Origin: a virus
Virus record (IMG/VR): IMGVR_UViG_3300037307_000721
Reading direction: 5' to 3' (one strand)
Length of the DNA: 64,000 nucleotides
The number at the start of each line of letters is the position of its first letter. The first letter of the stretch is position 1. The notes under the pieces were generated by a model, which worked only from the letters and a program-made list of their open reading frames with translations, was not told the origin of the DNA and did not search any database. The position numbers and the translations under genes are program-made. Positions 589-53,179 of the stretch are shown in pieces.

Positions 589-3500
589 CTAGTCGAGGTT
601 GGCGGCGAGCGCGAAGCCCTCGATGCTCCAACCGGTGAGCCGGCCATCCTTGACAGCCTGCCAGAGCGCATCGTCCAGGACGCGCGCGGCCAGGAGCCAG
701 GTGCCCTTCTTGACGAAGTGCCCGTCGAGGTGCAAGTCCGTCGGGGCGATGTAGCTCTCCAGCACGCGGACCTTGTCCCGGGCGAGCGTGCGCTGGTGCA
801 TGAGCCCGAGACGCTGCGTCTCCTCCATGAAGTAGAACGCCGCCTTGCGCACCGATTCAGCGTCGTAGATGTCGCCCTGGCTGTCGAACTCGTCCGGGAC
901 GAGCACGACTCCGAGAACGTAGCGCTCGTCTTCCTGCTTCACGAGCTCGACCCGATGCGAGCACGCGCCGAACGACTTCGCCAGCGCGTCCGAGTACTCG
1001 TCTGCCGACTTCTTCAGCTCGCCTGAGCCGAGCATCTCGTGCACGTCCTTCAACGACGAAGGACCGCCGTCGGCCTTGTCGACGACGACGGGCGTGAAGC
1101 CACGTAGGCGCTTCTTCTCCGCGTTGGACTCGTCCCAGAGGATCTCGGTCACCTCGATTCGGATGACGTCGCCGACCTTGGCCGCGACCTTCGTGTTGAA
1201 CGTGCGGCCCGCCTTCACGTAGGTCTTCCCCGCGACCTCGACGGTCTCGGCCCAGGACCCTGCCTCCTTGCCCGACACGGGGCCAACCGCATAGAAGAAG
1301 TTGTGCACACCGGGCGAACCCTTGACCGGGTGCGCGTCCCAGATGATGCCGCGGATCTCGCGAATCATCTTGAGCTTGGCCCACGAGTCGGTCTCGCGCA
1401 GCGTGACCGTGCTCTGGCTGCTCTTGAACATGGCGCCCTCGGACCCAATGTACCGACGAGCCCATTCGATCGCCGAGCGCAGCTCCTCCTTGTTGCGGAC
1501 GAGCTTGTGCGGCACGTAGACGAGCCGTGTGAAGTCGTGCCCGCGCAGGAAGTCGCGAAGCAGCGCGTTGCGCTCCTCGAGAGGCTTCGCAACCACGTTG
1601 CCCTTCTTCGGGTGGTACAGGATGTCGAACACACGCACTCTGGCGCCCTTGTCCTCGGCCGGGGTCCGGCCGCGAAAGGTGGCCAGCTCGCGACGAGGTA
1701 CCGGGCCACCGCCCGGCTCGAGCGCCGTGAACTCGGCATCGAGGATGAATGGTCCGGGCAGCTTGTCGAGCTCCTCCTTCAATCCAGGGAGCTGGTCGAT
1801 CATGTTGGTGATCGGCGTCTTGCGATCCCAGATGTCCTCGGTGATCATCAGGTAGCGGCCGTCCTCGGTCTTCTGGATCGAGGAGCGGAAGCCGTTGAAC
1901 TTGGGCTCGACTAGGATGCCGCTCTTGAGCATCTCCGGCGTGGCGAAATCGGTGAACAGCCTATCGAGCTCGTTGGAACGGAACTCGTTCGACTCTCTGC
2001 TCGCCGTCTTCATCGGCTTGTAGATCGCGAAGGGGCGCAGCCGTTCGCGATCGTGAGTCTTGTCGTCGCCCGGCTTGATGGTCTTCGGATCCCACACCTG
2101 CACGTCGGCGATCTTCTTGCCCGAGGCCAAGGTGATGGTCTCGAGCTTCTCCGCCTTCTCGATGCCCGCGGGAAGCTCGTGCGTGTGACCCTCGGGCTTG
2201 TCGTGCGCGTGCCCACGCGCGGGCTTGACCTTGCGCCCGGAGATCTCGTGCGTGTGGTCGTCCGCCCGGCGCTCCGACCCCTCGCTGATGACGGTGTCGG
2301 TCGTCTTGCCATTGCCCTGCGCATCGACATGGAAATGGTGCGCATGTCGATGGCTTCGCCCGGCCTCACCCGTCATCGGGGCCGCCGCGCGCTGCACGGG
2401 CTCGCCCACGCCCTCGCTCTTCTCCCAGATCCAGATGGAACCCTCACCAGTCTCCTTCGTCTCGGCACGAAGCACGAGCAGGCCAGAGAGGCCCTTGGGC
2501 AAGTCCTTGCCCTTGAGCTTGAACTTCTTGAACGCCGGCCCGTCCTCGAGGAACTCGATCGAACCACGAGCCAGGACGGAGATGGACGACGGCGTGTCCT
2601 TGGTCGGATTGAGCTCGAGGCCGCCATAGGACTTGCCCGGCTCCACGTCGCCATCGAGCTTCAAGAGCTCGCCGGCGCCCGCGCCTGTCGCCATCCGATG
2701 CACACCGGAGACGCGCTGGCCCGAGCTCGGGTCCTCCAAGAGCTGGAAGTCCTCGACCTTACCTCCTCGGTCGATGAAGAGGTGGTAGAGCATCCGGCTC
2801 GGTGCGGCCCGGATGACCTGCTGGCCCTTCCAGCGCTGCCAGGACAACGTGAACGGCGCCGAGCTCACGCCCTCCGCTTTTTCTTGACAGGTGAGAGTCT
2901 CACCTGTATCGTGGATGGCGGTGGGCGGGCGAGGCATGTTGCTAGGGCTATGCCCTGTCGCCTCGGTCGGCTCGTAGAGGTAGTACTTCGTCACCACCCG
3001 GCGGAACTCGTGGTCGACCAGCTTCACGTTGCTCGGCGTGAAGAAGTGCTCGGCGACAAGGGCATCGCGAATCTGCTTGCGCTCCTTCTCGTCCTTGGCG
3101 TGCCAGTACTGGAACTCCTTGGGCACGACGGCCTTGAGCTTGGGTGGTAGGTAGGAATAGCCCTGGGGCGGGATGCGTCCGACCTCGACGGCGCGTGGCT
3201 TGAGCACCGAAGGCACCAGGTCCTTGGCGAACATGGCGACCCAGAAGGGCACGCCCTTGGGCATCTTGCGGCCGGCCTCGACCTCGGGGTCCGAGGGCTT
3301 GCCAGCCTCGGAGACCAGGAGCCGGAAGGTGAGCAGCCCGGAGAACTTGGGGTCCTTCTCGAGGAAGTACTCGTGGAAGTAGGGCGTCCGCTCGCCCCAG
3401 GTGACCCGCGGCTCGGCGAGGATCACCATGACGCCCGCCTCTTCGCGAGTCGCGCCCACGGTCCCGGGCTCGAAGGCTTCCTCTACGCCCAGCCATTGCT

Positions 3501-5982
3501 TGGGCTCGGGAGCCTTCGTGGCCGCGTAGACCCGGTTGGGCGCGTTGAAAGGCTTGTTCCAGGACGAGCCCTCGACGCTGAAGGTGGCACCGATCTTCTT
3601 GGCCTCGGGCAGGGTGTTCACGTCGGGGACCTTGCCGGCGACCTGCATGGCGAGCGTGTAGCCGATGAGATAGCCGTTGGCGGCGATGCGGAAATCGCCG
3701 TGCACGCTCTTGCCCCGGAAGTGCGCCTGCAGCACAGAGCGCATCGGCTTCTCGCTGTGCGGCGGCTTGAGGAACGGGTCCTCCTTGGCCATGAGCTCGG
3801 CGATCGGTTCGACAGGGAGGTCCGCCTCTCGCATCTCCACGATCGTCTGGTAGTCGTCGCGCCGGCGCACGACGAGGTCGTAGATGGGCACGTTGGCGGT
3901 GAAGGGACCGGCCAGGCCGCTCGCCACATCGTCATCGTCTTTGCCGATGACGCCGCCGTGGAAGGACATGCGCTGCGAGATCTCCTCCGGCATCATGCGG
4001 CCGATGCGAAACTTCACGATGTGGCTCGTGGCTGGATCGAGCGGGCCGCGAACGAGCATGTCGACGTCGTTCTTGGTCACACCGTTGTTGGCCGTCGAGC
4101 CCACGATGTAGACAAAGGGGCTGCGGAGCAGGAACTCCTTGTGAAAGTGCGGCAGGAGCTCCTTGAGCGTGAGCTCGGGGAACTCGCCGTCGCTGCCCGG
4201 ATGCACCGGGGCGTAGCGGTCGCTGGGCCCGGCCTTGTAGAGCGAGGCGAGCTGGGCCGGGTTCGGGATGGCGATGCCGCGACGCTTCAGCTCCTCCTCG
4301 ATGAAGACGATGCCGTTCTCCACGTCCTCGCGAGAGAGGCCGCCGCCCGCGGTCGTCTTGCCCTCGGCGAAGACCGTCTCGAGCAACTGCTTCGCCTGCG
4401 CGTAGAGAGCCAGCAGCACGCCATCGTCCATGCCCTTGAGCGCGTTGGGCGTGAGCCCGCGGAAGCTCATCCAGGGCTCCTCGTCCTCCGCGGGCGGGTC
4501 TTCGGCCTTCTTGAGTGCGGCGGGCAGCTCGATGACGGGACCGTAGCGACGCGAGAGGAGAGGCTTGGCGAGCTGCAGCGGCGGATCGTAGGCCGCCACG
4601 AGGTGCATCTTCATGTAGAAGACGGGGCCCTCGGTCGAGAACTCCTCCCGGGAGAACTTGTCGATGCCGGCGAGGACTTCCGCTGGCAGCTTGCTCATGT
4701 CCTCGTACTCGGCGCCCTCATTCAGGGTGATCACGCCCCAGACGTACTGGGCGCCCGCCTTGGTGGGCTGCACCTCGTTGAGCAAGAACTGGCGCTGGCC
4801 CACGCGGCCAGTGCGGCGCAGGCGAGAAAGGACGCCCGTCTCCTCGTCCGCCTTGAGTCGGCGCAGGTTGAACGCCGGGTCGGGCAGCTTCAGAGTCGGC
4901 AGTTTGCCCTTGGGCTGCTCGGCCATGGCCACCTCGACGAACGTCTCGTCCTCCCGAATGGGCTTGAGGCCCTGAGCATCCAAGATGTAGAGCGCATCGG
5001 GGGCGAGGCCGGACGGCGCCCAGTCCTTGCCGATCGTGGCGCCCTCCTGGCCGAAGCTCTCCTCGAGCTCGAGGAAGGCCTCCAGGTAGTCGATGGCGTC
5101 CTCGGTGAGAGCGAGCGCCCGGGTCTTCTCGGGCAACGAGCCGACCGTGCGATGCAGCTGCTCGAGCAGGCGCTCGGCCAGGATGAACGGGTTGCCCATG
5201 TTCACGGGCGCCGGCGCCGCGACGCCGAGCATGTCGGCGACCTCGCTGTAGGCGGCGGTCAGCATGGGCCCGATCTGCCCCAGGGCTTTGAGCAGGCGCT
5301 GGGCGTGGCCGACGGGCTCCATGAGCCTTTCGGCCTGCTCGCAGATGTCCGGCATGCGCTGGGCGAAGGCCTGCGCCAGGCCGAGCGCGCGCTGGACGGC
5401 AGCCTTCTGGGGCCGGGTCATGCCGGCGAGCTCTTCGGCCTTGGGCGAACGCTTGAAGCGCGGCTCGAGCACGAAGGTCTGTGCACCCTGCGGGGCTTCC
5501 CATGCCTTCGGCTTGTCGAAGGGCTCGAGCTCCTCGATGCGATAGGCATAGAGACGACGAGCCTTCGGCCACCACTTCTTGCGCTCCTCCTCGGTGATCT
5601 TGTGCTGCGAGCGGAGCCGACGGAATTCGGCGAGCGAGATGGGCTTGGGCTTGGCCAGCGACATCACGCCGTACACGAACTCCTTGTCGCCGAAGTAGAG
5701 CTTCTCGCCGACGACGTTGTAGACGCGCGCGTGCACGATGAGCTTCTTCGCTCCCTCCCACACGAGCTTGGCATGCGGCTCGACCAGGATACGAAGGCGC
5801 CTCGGCTTGTCGTCTGAGACCTGAGAAGTCGCCGCCAGGGGCACGTCGGCCGTCGTGATCTCGTCCTTGGCAATCTCCGCCTTGATGGCGGCCGTGCGCA
5901 CGAGCCGGGAAAGGCCTTGCAGGCCAGTCGCCAGCTGCTCCAGGCGCTTGCGAACGTCGTCTCTGCTGTTCCGTTCCATCAT
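589..5982 (-). CDS. 1797-aa polyvalent head protein: ASCH-like x2, pol-beta nucleotidyltransferase, LigD-type 3'-phosphoesterase, His-rich module, ATP-dependent ligase (adenylation+OB), XkdF prohead serine protease
   Basis: Motifs: IVGSTANNGVTKNDVD (NTase); VLQAHFRGKSVHGDFRI (LigD PE); EPKFNGFR / ILDAEF / VFDIL / EGAMFK / WAKLK (ligase motifs I, III, IIIa, IV, V); RYVLGVVLVPDEFDSQGD...GLMH...LTGWSIEG (XkdF/S78_2). Lies between portal and scaffold. Confidence 0.88.
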   Translation of the reverse strand: MMERNSRDDVRKRLEQLATGLQGLSRLVRTAAIKAEIAKDEITTADVPLAATSQVSDDKPRRLRILVEPHAKLVWEGAKKLIVHARVYNVVGEKLYFGDKEFVYGVMSLAKPKPISLAEFRRLRSQHKITEEERKKWWPKARRLYAYRIEELEPFDKPKAWEAPQGAQTFVLEPRFKRSPKAEELAGMTRPQKAAVQRALGLAQAFAQRMPDICEQAERLMEPVGHAQRLLKALGQIGPMLTAAYSEVADMLGVAAPAPVNMGNPFILAERLLEQLHRTVGSLPEKTRALALTEDAIDYLEAFLELEESFGQEGATIGKDWAPSGLAPDALYILDAQGLKPIREDETFVEVAMAEQPKGKLPTLKLPDPAFNLRRLKADEETGVLSRLRRTGRVGQRQFLLNEVQPTKAGAQYVWGVITLNEGAEYEDMSKLPAEVLAGIDKFSREEFSTEGPVFYMKMHLVAAYDPPLQLAKPLLSRRYGPVIELPAALKKAEDPPAEDEEPWMSFRGLTPNALKGMDDGVLLALYAQAKQLLETVFAEGKTTAGGGLSREDVENGIVFIEEELKRRGIAIPNPAQLASLYKAGPSDRYAPVHPGSDGEFPELTLKELLPHFHKEFLLRSPFVYIVGSTANNGVTKNDVDMLVRGPLDPATSHIVKFRIGRMMPEEISQRMSFHGGVIGKDDDDVASGLAGPFTANVPIYDLVVRRRDDYQTIVEMREADLPVEPIAELMAKEDPFLKPPHSEKPMRSVLQAHFRGKSVHGDFRIAANGYLIGYTLAMQVAGKVPDVNTLPEAKKIGATFSVEGSSWNKPFNAPNRVYAATKAPEPKQWLGVEEAFEPGTVGATREEAGVMVILAEPRVTWGERTPYFHEYFLEKDPKFSGLLTFRLLVSEAGKPSDPEVEAGRKMPKGVPFWVAMFAKDLVPSVLKPRAVEVGRIPPQGYSYLPPKLKAVVPKEFQYWHAKDEKERKQIRDALVAEHFFTPSNVKLVDHEFRRVVTKYYLYEPTEATGHSPSNMPRPPTAIHDTGETLTCQEKAEGVSSAPFTLSWQRWKGQQVIRAAPSRMLYHLFIDRGGKVEDFQLLEDPSSGQRVSGVHRMATGAGAGELLKLDGDVEPGKSYGGLELNPTKDTPSSISVLARGSIEFLEDGPAFKKFKLKGKDLPKGLSGLLVLRAETKETGEGSIWIWEKSEGVGEPVQRAAAPMTGEAGRSHRHAHHFHVDAQGNGKTTDTVISEGSERRADDHTHEISGRKVKPARGHAHDKPEGHTHELPAGIEKAEKLETITLASGKKIADVQVWDPKTIKPGDDKTHDRERLRPFAIYKPMKTASRESNEFRSNELDRLFTDFATPEMLKSGILVEPKFNGFRSSIQKTEDGRYLMITEDIWDRKTPITNMIDQLPGLKEELDKLPGPFILDAEFTALEPGGGPVPRRELATFRGRTPAEDKGARVRVFDILYHPKKGNVVAKPLEERNALLRDFLRGHDFTRLVYVPHKLVRNKEELRSAIEWARRYIGSEGAMFKSSQSTVTLRETDSWAKLKMIREIRGIIWDAHPVKGSPGVHNFFYAVGPVSGKEAGSWAETVEVAGKTYVKAGRTFNTKVAAKVGDVIRIEVTEILWDESNAEKKRLRGFTPVVVDKADGGPSSLKDVHEMLGSGELKKSADEYSDALAKSFGACSHRVELVKQEDERYVLGVVLVPDEFDSQGDIYDAESVRKAAFYFMEETQRLGLMHQRTLARDKVRVLESYIAPTDLHLDGHFVKKGTWLLAARVLDDALWQAVKDGRLTGWSIEGFALAANLD

Positions 5983-6481: not shown

Positions 6482-8346
6482 TGAGCATCCTCCTCGGTCA
6501 GGCCGCCGCCGATGGCTTGCAACGGCGTGCCGGCCCGACGGATCTGGAGCGGCGCGGGCGCGGGCCCGCGGTTCATGTCCGCCTCGGGTGGCACGGACTC
6601 CTCCGGTTTCACCGGCACGGGGCTCGTGCCGATGCCAAGCTGATCTGGACTCGTCGCAGTGTGCAGCTGCGCCAGGATGTAGGGCAGCGGCTTGTTCGTC
6701 CACTCCTCTGCGAGGTCCTCGAACGTGCGGTTGAAGATGTCTGCGCAGAGCTCGCGCGCCTCGGAGATCATCAACACGCCGGCCTTGACCAGGTTGACGA
6801 CCATCTCGGCCATGGCCTCTGGGTCGCGCACGATCGGCGAGTTCGAGCGGAAGATCCAGAACGTGATGTCGAGCTCGGGGAAGAGCTCGCGGTTGATGAA
6901 CGAGTCGAAGTGCTCGCGCTCCGGCTCGAAGACCTGCTCCTCGGCGAACTTGAGCGCGGCGTAGGCCGTGGCGCGGTTCATCTGCTTGTCGTCGCCGCGC
7001 AAGATGCGTGGCAGGCGGAAGGCACGCGCCACCTTCTCCTCGTTGCGCACGTCGTAGTTCTGGAACAGCGCGTCCTGCAGCTGCGCGTCGCGCAGCGGTA
7101 CGAACATGACCTTGGGCACCGTGCGTGGCCCGACGTCCCCGGCGCCCTTCTGGCTCTCCGCCTCGAGGACCAGGATGCGGTGCACGCTCTTCTTGCCCTT
7201 GAGGTGCTCCTCGATGAACTCCTCGATCTTGGTGGCCACGCCCTTGCCGAGACGGCCACCGGATACGAGCAGCGCCAGTGGAGGCACGACGTTGTTCTTG
7301 AAGTAGTTGAGGTTGACCTCGTCGAGCTCGCGGCTGCCCATGACGCCGGGCAGGTTGGAGATCCACCGCGGCACACCGTAGGGCGTGTCCGGGGTGAAGA
7401 TCGCGAAGTGCGCGATCTCCGTCGCCGGCGCGACGCCGGGCTCTTTCGCCTCGAGGTCCTCGATGGACTCGTAGTACTTGCCGCTCTTCTGCGAGACCAC
7501 GCGCGGGTCGCCGAACTGCTTGAAGTAGACCGTCTTGCCGCGCGGCGCGAGCTTGACGTACCGGCGGAAGTGCTTGCGTACCTTGTAGCTCCGCCAGGTG
7601 ATGTCGGTGACCTTGGCCTTCTCCTCGACGACGATGGGCTCCTCGTCTTCCTTGAGGAGGCGCATGTTCATCGGGTTCGCGTAGTAGATGCGCGAGACCT
7701 CGCCGAGGGCGTTGCGCACGATCTCCCAGAAGGCATTGCCCAGGACTTCGTAGTCCTGGCGCGTGCGCCGTCGGAGCTCGATGAAGGAGAAGGTGGGACA
7801 GACGTAGGAGAAGAAGGCCTTGAGCCGCGAGTACTCGATGCGCGCGACGCGCCGGAGCTCCTCGATCTTGGCCCCCACCTCCTTCGGGTCCGGCGGCATG
7901 CCTGAGGCGGACGCCCCGCCCCGGTCGTGCGCGTCGAGCGCGTCCTCGTAAAGCATTGCGTCTGAGACGCGCTCGGGCGCCCCCTTGCCGGCGAGGTCGA
8001 TCGAGGGCACCAGATGGTGCCCAAACGAGTCGATGTTCGTCACGTAGGCGTCGATGTTGGGACGCAGGATGGTCGACTGCTCGTAGAGCGTGTACAACTT
8101 CTTGAAATCGTAGGGAGGAGCGAGCGCACCGCCTGGCAGGTTGCCCTCCTTCGACGCGAGGAAGTCGAGCAGCTCCGTTGTCCGGCGCTCGCCACTCCCC
8201 AGAATCTCGGCCTTGACGATGGGCGCCGGGGCCCCTCTCTTGCGAACCACTCTTCGGGTTTTAGTCGCCACCTGATAGTTCTCCCGCATTCTGGAAGGAA
8301 GTTCTGCGGCTATGATAGTTAGAGTGCTCTGGACAGTCAAACCCAT
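6478..8346 (-). CDS. phage portal protein (PBSX/HK97-like); start may be ATG8289
   Basis: LYEQS...IDAYVTNIDSFG, QDYEVLGNAFWEIVRN, GVPRWIS, NLNYFKNNVVPP motifs; head-module position. Confidence 0.92.
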   Translation of the reverse strand: MGLTVQSTLTIIAAELPSRMRENYQVATKTRRVVRKRGAPAPIVKAEILGSGERRTTELLDFLASKEGNLPGGALAPPYDFKKLYTLYEQSTILRPNIDAYVTNIDSFGHHLVPSIDLAGKGAPERVSDAMLYEDALDAHDRGGASASGMPPDPKEVGAKIEELRRVARIEYSRLKAFFSYVCPTFSFIELRRRTRQDYEVLGNAFWEIVRNALGEVSRIYYANPMNMRLLKEDEEPIVVEEKAKVTDITWRSYKVRKHFRRYVKLAPRGKTVYFKQFGDPRVVSQKSGKYYESIEDLEAKEPGVAPATEIAHFAIFTPDTPYGVPRWISNLPGVMGSRELDEVNLNYFKNNVVPPLALLVSGGRLGKGVATKIEEFIEEHLKGKKSVHRILVLEAESQKGAGDVGPRTVPKVMFVPLRDAQLQDALFQNYDVRNEEKVARAFRLPRILRGDDKQMNRATAYAALKFAEEQVFEPEREHFDSFINRELFPELDITFWIFRSNSPIVRDPEAMAEMVVNLVKAGVLMISEARELCADIFNRTFEDLAEEWTNKPLPYILAQLHTATSPDQLGIGTSPVPVKPEESVPPEADMNRGPAPAPLQIRRAGTPLQAIGGGLTEEDAQ

Positions 8347-8410: not shown

Positions 8411-8887
8411 ATGACAACGATGCTTGCCCACGTCCACAAGCCGTGCGCCATCCGGCAGCAAATCAAGGCGGGCAGCCAGTTCGACGGTCTGGCGCCGGCG
8501 GACGGGGCCACCGCTCTGGACCCGGCAGCCAGCCTGGACTACTTCAACTTCGACCCGGGCACGCACGGGGGGCTCTTCGACCCCACGGCGAGCTACTACA
8601 GCTTCTACGAGCGGGACGCCTTGAACCTGCTCGGGATGGACTTCAAGAGCGGGGGCCAGTCAAGCTGGAGTCTCTCGCTCGTCGACAAGTTCGGCACCGA
8701 GTACGTCATCTGGAGTGGGACCACCGGGGACACGGTGCAGGGACCCTCGGCCGCGAGCGGACCCGTCATCCTCATCTGGGGGACCAAGCTGAAGTTCGTC
8801 ACCGTCGGTGCCTCAGCCGCCATGGTGTGCACCATCAAGCTCGGGCCGCAGGAGTGGTGCATCGAAGACTCAGACCGTGCCGTGTAG
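8411..8887 (+). CDS. hypothetical virion-module protein
   Basis: 158-aa ORF with GGAGGA RBS, divergent from portal. Confidence 0.6.
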   Translation: MTTMLAHVHKPCAIRQQIKAGSQFDGLAPADGATALDPAASLDYFNFDPGTHGGLFDPTASYYSFYERDALNLLGMDFKSGGQSSWSLSLVDKFGTEYVIWSGTTGDTVQGPSAASGPVILIWGTKLKFVTVGASAAMVCTIKLGPQEWCIEDSDRAV

Positions 8888-35992: not shown

Positions 35993-36075
35993 TGGGGCGG
36001 GGAGGACTCGAACACTCCGACCCTCCCGGGGCGCCAAGGCGCCGGCGGGATGCTCTACCGCTGAGCTACCGCCCC
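35993..36075 (-). ncRNA. tRNA-like RNA with anticodon loop replaced by GC hairpin
   Basis: GGGGCGG/CCGCCCC acceptor; D arm; TCCCG-[CCGGCGCCTTGGCGCCC]-CGGGA; TTCGA T loop. Confidence 0.6.
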
Positions 36076-46853: not shown

Positions 46854-48767
46854 CTATGCCCAGGCGGGCTTCTGAAGAAGAGGCGTCTTCAAGATCTGCT
46901 CGATGAGCGAGACCCGCGTCGGCACCGGAGCTGCCGGGCCGGTGACCTTGCGAACCGGCGTGGCAGTGATCAGGTTCCTCAGCGTGCGACTCACCGCGTA
47001 CGGATCGTTGAAGATCTCCTCGTCGATCGGGAAGCAGGGCACGTTGAGACGCCCCGCCGCCTGGTGGATGAGCGAGTCGGGTCTGCCCGGCGCGCCCATC
47101 GAGTCGATGTGAAGCAGGCCGAAAGCAACCGGCTCGACGCCGGACTGCTGGATGGCCCGCACCAGGTAGTCGATCCCCGGGCCGAGGCCCGAAGAGTCCT
47201 GCTCGTCGCCGACGAAGAAGAGGAGCGCGTCCTCGGTCGCCGCCGGCTTGTGCCGCTCGAGCAAGCAGCGGGCTCCCGCCGCGTAGCTCGTCCCGCCGCC
47301 CGCGTTGTGACCCCTGAAGGCCTGGGCCACACCCACCGCCGAGGGGACCTTGATCTCGACTTCGCGCCCCTCGGTGTTGAAGACGCACACGTGCAACCGG
47401 TCGAGCGGGAAGGCCGAGACGAGCCGAGCGAGACACTCCTTCGCCCGCTCGATGGCCCCTTGCATGGACCCGCTCTTGTCGACGATGACGTAGATCCGGA
47501 AGTCCTTCGCGACCTCCGCCACCGCCTTCTGCGCGGCCTGGTCGGCCGCCTGCTCGAGCTGCTCCTTGACCGCGACGTCCTTGACGTTGCGGGCGATGTT
47601 CGCCGCCCGCTGGTTCTCGGCCTTCTCCGTCGCCGCCTTCCACCGCTTGGCGATCTGCTCCACCTGGAGAAGCCCGAGCTCCTCGAGCGTCGGGGTCAGG
47701 ATGATGAGGTCAGCGTCGCTGAGCCCACCGCCCTCGATCGCCGCCGCCATGATGGCCGGCGTCAGCCCGGGGTCCGTCGGGAGCATGCCCACGATGCGCT
47801 TCCACGACAGCCTGCCCACCACGATGCGCTCGCAGATCTGCTTCTCGCTCAGGCCCTTCCAGCTCTCGGCCGCGGCGACTTCCTTGCCGATGGCCAGCCC
47901 TCGCCGCCCGTCCTTGGCCTGCACCTGCTTCCAGCGCAGGAGCTCAAAGAAGCGCTCGGCCTGCGGCTTGTAGCCCACCTTGCGAGCGAGCTGCATGACC
48001 GCCTGGCGAAAGCCCTCCTTGAGCACCTTCTCGAGCAGCTTGATGTTCGCCTCGTGATGCGCGAGCCACTTCTCCACGGCCTTGTAGTACCGGCCGGTCG
48101 GAGCGGTCCGCGCCGACTGCCCGAAGCCAAGCTTCCGGTTGATCTCGACGACCGCCGGGAGCTCGAGCACCTCGCCAACCCGGAGCAGGAGCTTCGGGTT
48201 GAACGTCCCGCCCTTCTTCCTGGACCGGATGAGGCACATGGCCTCGCCCACCGCGCGGTAGTCGTCGTCGAGCAAGGTGGCGTCGCCATCCTTGATCGGT
48301 TCCCCGTAGCGGTTCTGCACCAGGAGGAACGCGGCGAGCAGCACCTTGAGGTCCCGGTTCTCCTCGTGCTCGAAGGCGTAGGACGCCCACTTCGCGGCGA
48401 ACTCGTTGTCGATCCGCCAGACGTCGGCGATCTGCGAGTAGAGATGCGCCACGACCTCGGGGAAGAGGCCCGGCGCACGGAACTCCGCGACCACCCGACC
48501 GGCCTCGATGACCCGAGCGGAGCCCGGCTCGCCGATTCCGATGCGGGTCTTGTGCTGCTTCTTGCCGACCTTCTTGACGGTGTAGACGACCTTCTGCTCG
48601 CCCTCCTTGACCCAGGTCGCCTGCTCCCAGCGCTTGCCCCAGGGCTGACGCTGGTCGTCGAAGACGACGCCGGGCCGGTTGTGGACGGCGTGGTCGGTGA
48701 AACGGGTGATGGTCTGGATGATTCGCTCGGCGGGGCCGAGCGCCTCGAGGCGCTCTTGCGCGTTCAT
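46854..48767 (-). CDS. TROVE/Ro60-like helical protein with C-terminal vWA domain
   Basis: Long helical N-terminal region; IVDKSGSM MIDAS, GGTS, FVGDE; preceded by tRNA-like RNAs. Confidence 0.75.
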   Translation of the reverse strand: MNAQERLEALGPAERIIQTITRFTDHAVHNRPGVVFDDQRQPWGKRWEQATWVKEGEQKVVYTVKKVGKKQHKTRIGIGEPGSARVIEAGRVVAEFRAPGLFPEVVAHLYSQIADVWRIDNEFAAKWASYAFEHEENRDLKVLLAAFLLVQNRYGEPIKDGDATLLDDDYRAVGEAMCLIRSRKKGGTFNPKLLLRVGEVLELPAVVEINRKLGFGQSARTAPTGRYYKAVEKWLAHHEANIKLLEKVLKEGFRQAVMQLARKVGYKPQAERFFELLRWKQVQAKDGRRGLAIGKEVAAAESWKGLSEKQICERIVVGRLSWKRIVGMLPTDPGLTPAIMAAAIEGGGLSDADLIILTPTLEELGLLQVEQIAKRWKAATEKAENQRAANIARNVKDVAVKEQLEQAADQAAQKAVAEVAKDFRIYVIVDKSGSMQGAIERAKECLARLVSAFPLDRLHVCVFNTEGREVEIKVPSAVGVAQAFRGHNAGGGTSYAAGARCLLERHKPAATEDALLFFVGDEQDSSGLGPGIDYLVRAIQQSGVEPVAFGLLHIDSMGAPGRPDSLIHQAAGRLNVPCFPIDEEIFNDPYAVSRTLRNLITATPVRKVTGPAAPVPTRVSLIEQILKTPLLQKPAWA

Positions 48768-49590: not shown

Positions 49591-49730
49591 GGTGCCGGCG
49601 CGAGGATTCGAACCTCGATTCACTTGTAGGCTTGAGCTGTGAAGCTCTTGCGAGCTCGAGTACCCCAAGCGGGTTGTGGTTGTTCTTGGTTTAGGAGTCC
49701 AAGTGCCTTTTCCAATTCGGCCACGCCGGC
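49591..49730 (-). ncRNA. tRNA/Y-RNA-like chimera 1 (9-nt anticodon loop, about 70-nt insert)
   Basis: GCCGGCG/CGCCGGC acceptor; insert GCTTGGG...CTCAAGC-CTACAAGTG. Confidence 0.75.
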
Positions 49731-52510: not shown

Positions 52511-52520
52511 AAGATCGAAA

Positions 52521-52655
52521 CCGCGCCCGAGATGTCAGACCTGGATCTTGCTCGATTTTCCGTCGAGTGCCTTCCCGTTAGGCTAGCTCCCCGTAGAGTG
52601 GGGAGCCCAGGGGTCGAACCTGGATGACTTGTCGGGTCTATCTGGTTGGACGCGG
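52521..52655 (-). ncRNA. circularly permuted tRNA-like RNA (YrlA-type topology)
   Basis: Terminal stem CCGCGTCC/GGGCGCGG; order T arm, looped acceptor stem, D arm, anticodon-like arm. Confidence 0.75.
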
Positions 52656-52661
52656 AATCGG

Positions 52662-52745
52662 CGGAGAGCCGGGGAGTCGAACCCCGCTGGCCTTTCGACC
52701 GCACCCGGGTAGCAACCGGGCCGCGCGCCATCGCACACGCTCTCC
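52662..52745 (-). tRNA. tRNA-Ser(GCT)
   Basis: Long variable arm, G73. Confidence 0.85.
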
Positions 52746-52750
52746 AGGGG

Positions 52751-52804
52751 TGGCCTCTCTGCTCGCGCTTGCTCCCTTCCGGGCCTGGACGCAGCTTCGA
52801 GACC
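52751..52804 (-). ncRNA. ffs: minimal SRP (4.5S-like) RNA domain IV
   Basis: CCAGG-CCC-GGAA-GGG-AGCA helix-8 signature inside GGTCTC/GAGGCC hairpin. Confidence 0.72.
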
Positions 52805-52879
52805 GGAGCGACCAGAGGGAGTCGAACCCTCTCCTCAGGCTTGGGAAGCCCGCATGCAGCCGTTCAACACCTTGGTCGC
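52805..52879 (-). tRNA. tRNA-Gly(CCC)
   Basis: Cloverleaf. Confidence 0.85.
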
Positions 52880-53030: not shown

Positions 53031-53179
53031 AGTCGTTCTTCGGATCGAGCTCGCGCACGCGCTCTCGCACGGCGTCGCGCATCTTGTTGCTGCCAGCGCC
53101 CGTGAAGCCCAGCGCCAGCGCCACCATCACCTCTTCTAGTTGTCTGCGTTCTTCTTCCATGATCAATCTCGAATCTGAG

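Follow-up and report, generated by a model that had tools for sequence, protein, structure and literature searches.

SRP RNA is among the few universally conserved RNAs and is used by cells to deliver membrane proteins. In phages, the T4 species 1 and 2 RNAs are non-tRNA stable RNAs of a tRNA cluster, co-transcribed with the tRNAs and released by tRNA-processing enzymes; to our knowledge, no function has been assigned to them. Phage tmRNA genes also occur in tRNA clusters, for example at 1928-2292 of L019, one of the phage loci described below (loci carry L numbers). Unlike the hairpin reported here, neither the T4 RNAs nor the phage tmRNAs contain an SRP motif.

In Bacteria, the corresponding RNA is the small SRP RNA (4.5S RNA, gene ffs; RF00169, clan CL00003). 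Its symmetric loop is defined by an invariant A-C pair and a neighboring invariant G, and the M domain of SRP54/Ffh uses the asymmetric loop as well (PMC4605306). The contact site for FtsY consists of the GGAA tetraloop plus two adjacent C-G pairs (PMC11404819). Up to 10 bp of the distal stem can be removed without loss of function, but once more than 14 bp are gone neither GTPase activation nor cargo targeting takes place (Ataide 2011, as cited in 10.1101/378745 and PMC5499578). 4.5S RNA is also a verified hairpin-type substrate of RNase P with a 3'-CCC end (PMC5499578). Among full-text literature open to readers without a subscription, we found no report of a phage-encoded or virus-mimicked SRP RNA.

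Here, we report a 54-nt RNA hairpin displaying the SRP RNA apex in the tRNA array of a large uncultivated phage. The window (the whole 64,000-nt stretch of DNA analyzed) comes from an IMG/VR virus record of 82,418 bp, which is approximately 55% complete (CheckV) and has a G+C content of 65%. The hairpin fills the spacer that separates tRNA-Gly(ccc) from tRNA-Ser(gct), directly abutting the former (0 nt) and ending 5 nt before the latter (Table 1). The original prediction had placed a hairpin with a CAGG-CCC-GGAA-GGG-AGCA apex between these two tRNA genes, and its coordinates, fold and flanking tRNAs agree with ours.

Table 1. Coordinates of the hairpin, its parts and neighboring features in the window.
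Feature	Position	Strand	Details
54-nt SRP-apex hairpin RNA	52751-52804	(-)	RNA position i = window 52805-i; from fold and SRP model alignments
Upstream tRNA-Gly(ccc)	52805-52879	(-)	ARAGORN; Rfam 30.5 bits; ends ...U-C-C abutting the hairpin's first G
Downstream tRNA-Ser(gct)	52660-52745	(-)	ARAGORN
GGAA (GNRA) tetraloop	52777-52780	(-)	Closed by CCC (52781-52783) / GGG (52774-52776)
Symmetric loop, 5' strand CAGG	52784-52787	(-)	RF01857 alignment; columns invariant in the phage copies aligned
Symmetric loop, 3' strand AGCA	52770-52773	(-)	RF01857 alignment; columns invariant in the phage copies aligned
Inter-loop helix, 3' strand: A36 opposite C17, then GCGC	52765-52769	(-)	Pairs with 52788-52792 (GCGUC)
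Middle helix, 5' strand, continuous, without asymmetric loop	52788-52795	(-)	Fold
GAA of 3x3 internal loop	52796-52798	(-)	Opposite AGA, 52758-52760
6-bp closing stem, 5' strand GGUCUC	52799-52804	(-)	Pairs with 52752-52757 (GAGGCC)
3' tail ACCCCU, closing stem to tRNA-Ser	52746-52751	(-)	Like the ACCC 3' end of E. coli 4.5S RNA
637-aa vWA protein	46854-48767	(-)	Pfam matches just under curated cut-offs

The reverse complement of 52751-52804 folds into one hairpin with a minimum free energy of -25.5 kcal/mol, which makes up 55% of the ensemble. From base to tip it comprises the 6-bp closing stem, a 3x3 loop, a 7-bp helix, a C.A apposition, the 4x4 CAGG/AGCA loop, the CCC/GGG stem and the GGAA tetraloop. 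The sole irregularity of the middle helix is a G bulged on the 3' side (G41, 52764). The stability of this fold is unremarkable in DNA with 65% G+C, since its z-score is only -1.88 and 9 of 200 shuffled sequences are as stable; a plus-strand transcript of the same region folds worse than its shuffles (z +1.64). The significance of the hairpin lies not in its fold energy but in an exact 18-nt SRP apex at the hairpin tip, in a tRNA spacer and on the tRNA strand.

The 18-nt helix-8 apex (52770-52787) is an exact copy and occurs once in the window, where base composition predicts 2.2e-5 chance matches. Covariance model searches at Rfam gathering thresholds returned only tRNAs in the window and no SRP RNA. 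Under relaxed thresholds, the apex aligned free of mismatches to positions 194-221 of RF01857 (24 bits, E 9e-4; cut-off 96.5 bits) and to positions 33-60 of the 97 positions of RF00169 (24 bits, E 4e-4 in the 82-kb record). The search with the bacterial small SRP model, proposed as a check in the original prediction, yields only a local match at the apex, at a score of 24 bits that lies below the gathering cut-off of 40 bits.

The hairpin shares with bacterial small SRP RNA the GGAA tetraloop, the 3-bp C-G stem that it caps and the CAGG/AGCA loop, which at the level of sequence contains the invariant A-C pair and the neighboring invariant G. As in domain IV of 4.5S RNA, a C.A (or U.G) pair is followed by a short Watson-Crick helix, and the stem ends in an ACC(C) tail, a likely RNase P-defined end. 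Unlike 4.5S RNA, however, it is encoded by a phage within a tRNA polycistron, is 54 nt long as opposed to 97 positions, and lacks two parts. There is no asymmetric loop in the fold, which would lie 3-4 bp below the symmetric loop and have a 5' strand longer by 2-3 nt. The 3x3 GAA/AGA loop is not a canonical asymmetric loop because, at 8 positions below the symmetric loop, it is too distant, in contrast to the arrangement in the 44-nt phage copies described below. The extended helix with the distal GTPase-docking site is also absent, with tRNA genes 0 and 5 nt away. By sequence and fold, this is no canonical SRP RNA. It keeps the symmetric loop, which forms the core of the site for the Ffh M domain, together with the elements contacted by FtsY. 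Its description as the Ffh M-domain binding site is overstated: the SRP apex and symmetric loop are present, but the asymmetric loop, also used by the M domain, is not. The absence of the distal end, on which GTPase activation depends, is upheld, with the requirement itself taken from the accounts of Ataide 2011 cited above.

Laboratory RNAs offer a further comparison. Domain IV fragments, the distal truncations of E. coli 4.5S RNA (Ataide 2011 via 10.1101/378745 and PMC5499578) and a 41-nt tetraloop RNA (PMC11404819) are, like the phage hairpin, short hairpins that display the tetraloop. According to these sources, such constructs support early FtsY contact and do not activate GTP hydrolysis at the distal site. 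They differ in being engineered, and those that bind the M domain keep the asymmetric loop that is absent here.

The assignment of the hairpin to a phage holds, given the portal and XkdF protease genes and the origin of the sequence in an IMG/VR virus record. All of the 47 tRNA genes that ARAGORN identified are encoded by the minus strand. The closest cultured relatives of the portal protein are from Rhizobium, Aeromonas and Vibrio phages, with approximately 33% identity to the Rhizobium phage protein. We found no SRP54-type GTPase or M domain in the hairpin's own 82-kb record (approximately 55% complete); because neither Ffh nor FtsY was found there, the partners of the hairpin would be host proteins. 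An archaeal host was considered, as the best-matching member of the Rfam clan is archaeal and a 23-mer around the apex is shared with Archaeoglobales. It was set aside because the Archaeoglobales contigs have 38-44% G+C as compared to 65%, and because of the Rhizobium, Aeromonas and Vibrio affiliations of the portal protein.

The record has other unusual features. The 1797-aa ORF beside the portal gene (589-5982, minus strand) encodes an ATP-dependent DNA ligase domain (residues 1350-1538) and a C-terminal XkdF-type phage serine protease (1681-1791), an unusual fusion. Two minus-strand regions matched the Rfam tRNA model and had no ARAGORN call: 49593-49730 (47.0 bits), which at 138 nt must hold a large insertion, and 35993-36075 (45.2 bits), in which a long G+C-rich hairpin replaces the anticodon arm. 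Between tRNA-Ser(gct) and tRNA-Ser(gga), a spacer of 149 nt (52511-52659, minus strand) forms a closed four-hairpin fold (-57.4 kcal/mol, z -3.0) that none of 200 shuffles equaled; it matches no Rfam family above noise, and one of its 7-nt loops, GGUUCGACC, is T-loop-like. In the 148-nt spacer between tRNA-Ser(cga) and tRNA-Asp (53031-53178, minus strand), an ATG at 53160 opens a frame (MEEERRQLEE...) that runs through tRNA-Asp with no stop; it may be a small peptide gene overlapping tRNA-Asp, or spurious.

We then examined whether similar hairpins occur in other phages. IMG/VR was scanned with two patterns, and the loci obtained were analyzed with Rfam and ARAGORN and by folding. The first apex-pattern scan, of all IMG/VR contigs, yielded 25 loci. 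Three distinct matches are in coding regions (L003, L006=L016 and L017), in agreement with a rough expectation of a few chance matches in the entire collection. These have neither a hairpin nor tRNA context, and a chance origin of the window hairpin was rejected on this basis. Truncated SRP hairpins located in or beside tRNA arrays, on the tRNA strand, were found in at least ten other large uncultivated phages, and every phage copy among tRNA genes shares the strand of the tRNAs.

Phage SRP RNAs fall into three grades. Full-length copies of 93-96 nt (L056, at 8570-8660, L060 and L061) score 57.7-58.7 bits, above the Rfam cut-off, and lie between or beside tRNA genes in records of 497, 372 and 290 kb, respectively. 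Stubs of 44-45 nt that correspond to helix 8 and retain the asymmetric loop occur at L009, L013/L025, L012 and L023. Two of these reach the Rfam cut-off (L009, 42.1 bits, in the region 871-950; L013, 40.7 bits, with the 44-nt copy at 7587-7630 in the region 7587-7660; both minus strand). Unlike the window copy, they are preceded by a promoter-like TTGACA-N17-TAGGGT sequence of their own, and may be independently transcribed or part of an mRNA leader. Approximately 100 nt downstream of both stubs is a gene for a conserved, highly charged protein of approximately 279 aa, for which no Pfam family was found. The L012 stub is located between tRNA-Glu and tRNA-Arg, with the stem followed by ACCUU and then the tRNA.

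The third grade, apex-only, is distinct and recurs in several unrelated phage contigs. It includes the window copy, L005, L018, L019, L062 and L065, all with a continuous or nearly continuous helix. The L005 copy begins 7 nt after tRNA-Gly, and its minimum-energy structure is not the SRP-like hairpin. The L019 copy lies between tRNA-Gln and tRNA-Phe in a 183-kb record that is 95% complete, L062 (28.5 bits) is in a 436-kb record with terminal repeats (100% complete), and L065 (22.6 bits) is in a 417-kb record. In L018 (221-275, plus strand) only a 1x1 mismatch is present at the position of the asymmetric loop, and a run of six U directly follows the hairpin, which looks like an intrinsic terminator made from the SRP apex. 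As apex-only forms score 22-28 bits, under the Rfam cut-off, they are overlooked by routine annotation.

An alignment of nine sequences has 16 invariant apex columns, including GGAA. The three canonical inter-loop pairs are paired in all nine sequences, with compensatory changes at all three, and the flanking position is C.A in seven and U.G in two. The closing stems have no common sequence, yet all pair. L005, L009, L012, L013, L018, L019, L023, L062 and L065 resemble the window copy in four respects: the apex tops a short closed hairpin, the hairpin has the orientation of the tRNA genes, it belongs to or adjoins a tRNA array, and no Ffh-type domain was found in the record. Searches for an Ffh M domain in 11 carrier records and for an SRP54 GTPase domain in five further carrier records, including those with full-length SRP RNA, found none. 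The window copy thus qualifies for an informal class of phage tRNA-array mini-SRP hairpins (at most 55 nt, on the tRNA strand, in a record without ffh). It is the longest of these hairpins (54 nt), belongs to those that lack the asymmetric loop and has an extra 3x3 GAA/AGA loop.

Considered together, we favor the reading that the hairpin engages host Ffh and/or FtsY without replacing the host RNA, as a decoy or modulator, and assign it a probability of roughly 0.5. We rank it above a working replacement, a neutral relic, a processing element and an attP core. In this reading, the hairpin is a genuine RNA that derives from the helix-8 apex of SRP RNA and is maintained by selection in the phage. 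It is probably transcribed within the long minus-strand tRNA precursor, since there is no promoter-like or terminator-like site between it and the neighboring tRNAs. Its 3' end would be generated when RNase P matures the 5' end of tRNA-Ser. RNase P possibly also cuts at the first G of the hairpin, as in pre-4.5S RNA, which the stem-plus-ACC(C) end resembles, and this cut would leave a tRNA-Gly ending in ...UCC, ready for A addition. The released hairpin could then engage host Ffh and/or FtsY via the symmetric loop and the GGAA/C-G pairs. Without the asymmetric loop and the distal docking helix, it would be unable to run the full targeting cycle, and host SRP components would be diverted or modulated, the hairpin acting as a decoy or giving rise to an SRP of altered function. 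Its affinity for Ffh may be low in the absence of the asymmetric loop, and host Ffh already carries its own RNA. The apex alone has been kept independently in several phages even though the full gene would take only approximately 50 bases more, and this repeated reduction suggests that phages either do not need the distal part or are better off without it.

The origin of the hairpin bears on the next reading, that a host ffs was co-captured with tRNA genes and decayed to its most stable piece, which is now functionless. We scanned 185,579 prokaryotic species genomes (one per species) and 241 million metagenome records for exact words of 23 and 24 nt around the apex. The 24-mer is absent from the species genomes, and the hairpin is not a verbatim fragment of any bacterial ffs in that set. 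For the 23-mer, the only matches are SRP RNAs of Archaeoglobales and the phage contig of L005. No close relative or donor was identified in these scans. When 50,697 deposited phage genomes were searched by BLAST with the 54-mer and with two further phage copies, nothing real was returned: matches in the phiCbK group fall within a protein-coding gene, antisense to it, and were discarded, and those in Acinetobacter 'phage' contigs and in one E. coli phage are short and confined to the apex.

Co-capture itself is plausible, as bacterial ffs often adjoins a tRNA-Ser gene. In three host-like loci (L011, L020 and L026) a long-arm tRNA of 88-90 nt is immediately upstream of the SRP RNA gene, and this synteny could be a route by which pieces of ffs enter phage tRNA arrays. 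The distribution is also sporadic. Eleven phage records, the largest of 416 kb, encode full-length relatives of the window's vWA protein (48-60% identity); we found no SRP-like motif within 10 kb of the vWA gene in any of them, nor an SRP-like element anywhere in these huge-phage records at E <= 1. The element is therefore dispensable. The non-SRP-like minimum-energy fold of L005 also fits a decayed piece. Decay does not, however, predict that all 18 apex positions would be intact in each independent phage copy while the flanks are rebuilt as fully paired closing stems, nor that truncation would recur at the same boundaries with the copies among tRNA genes always on the tRNA strand; moreover, the sequence below the apex of the window copy matches no bacterial ffs. 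We regard a functionless relic as unlikely.

Next in rank, and somewhat harder to sustain, is a working mini-SRP, in which the hairpin joins host Ffh and sustains membrane targeting of phage proteins during infection. The huge phages with full-length small SRP RNA and no ffh (L056, L060 and L061) suggest that a supply of SRP RNA is useful, and the tetraloop and symmetric loop of the window copy are intact. Nevertheless, the distal docking site is wholly absent, and a loss of more than 14 bp abolishes GTPase activation and cargo transport in the accounts cited above. The asymmetric loop is missing as well, and only positions 33-60 of the 97-position model are matched by the 54-nt RNA. There is also no sign of host 4.5S RNA destruction. 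The original prediction had offered replacement of degraded host 4.5S RNA as one of two roles; this is unsupported and is disfavored by the missing parts. We find a working mini-SRP quite improbable.

Placed below both is the possibility that the hairpin is a processing or stability element, serving as punctuation for RNase P or RNase E, as a 3'-end former for the CCA-less tRNA-Gly or as an exonuclease block, its SRP ancestry being incidental. It abuts tRNA-Gly between ...UCC and G, and its stem plus ACC(CCU) is like an RNase P minihelix or a pre-4.5S substrate. The same order of stem, ACC and tRNA is found at L012, and at L018 the hairpin, with its U-run, also resembles a terminator. Any G+C-rich hairpin would serve these purposes, however, and the strict retention of the 18-nt apex across unrelated phages is left unexplained, so that we consider this reading very doubtful. 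Least credible by far is that the phage integrates into host ffs and that the hairpin is its attP core: attachment sites within ffs are documented (PMC12540744) and full large SRP RNAs at IMG/VR contig ends (L010, L014, L024 and L026) resemble such junctions or host flanks, but the 82-kb record has no tyrosine integrase (PF00589) or serine recombinase (PF00239) domain, the match is to the central apex and not to the 3' part of ffs, the flanks match no bacterial ffs, and the hairpin is inside a tRNA operon in sense orientation.

Returning to engagement of host Ffh and/or FtsY, the second role that had been suggested, a sponge for Ffh, is compatible with the predicted anatomy of the hairpin. In vitro, FtsY is bound by small hairpins that mimic the GGAA end, and these prevent SRP and FtsY from assembling (PMC11404819). 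Over-expression of truncated SRP RNAs unable to form the docking stem kills E. coli, although these variants are misfolding 3' truncations and not clean apex hairpins (10.1101/378745). We tentatively extend the reading to the apex-only grade as a whole, a step that we hold to be possible and well short of probable: made in bulk from tRNA operons, these hairpins may be anti-SRP decoys that load onto Ffh and/or FtsY by way of the symmetric loop and the tetraloop and, for want of a distal docking site, trap the two GTPases in non-firing complexes, re-tuning or shutting down host membrane-protein biogenesis. If this is the case, the decoys would strike the production of host membrane proteins, including receptors and envelope defenses, during infection.

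The series of full-length, helix-8-only and apex-only copies amounts to an evolutionary deletion analysis of SRP RNA, in which the parts kept by phages are exactly the FtsY contacts and the core of the Ffh site. We know of no phage that targets co-translational membrane targeting. If the hairpins bind host Ffh or FtsY, they would represent manipulation of this process by phages, and they would provide, ready-made in nature, very small molecules with which to inhibit or probe the SRP cycle of bacteria.
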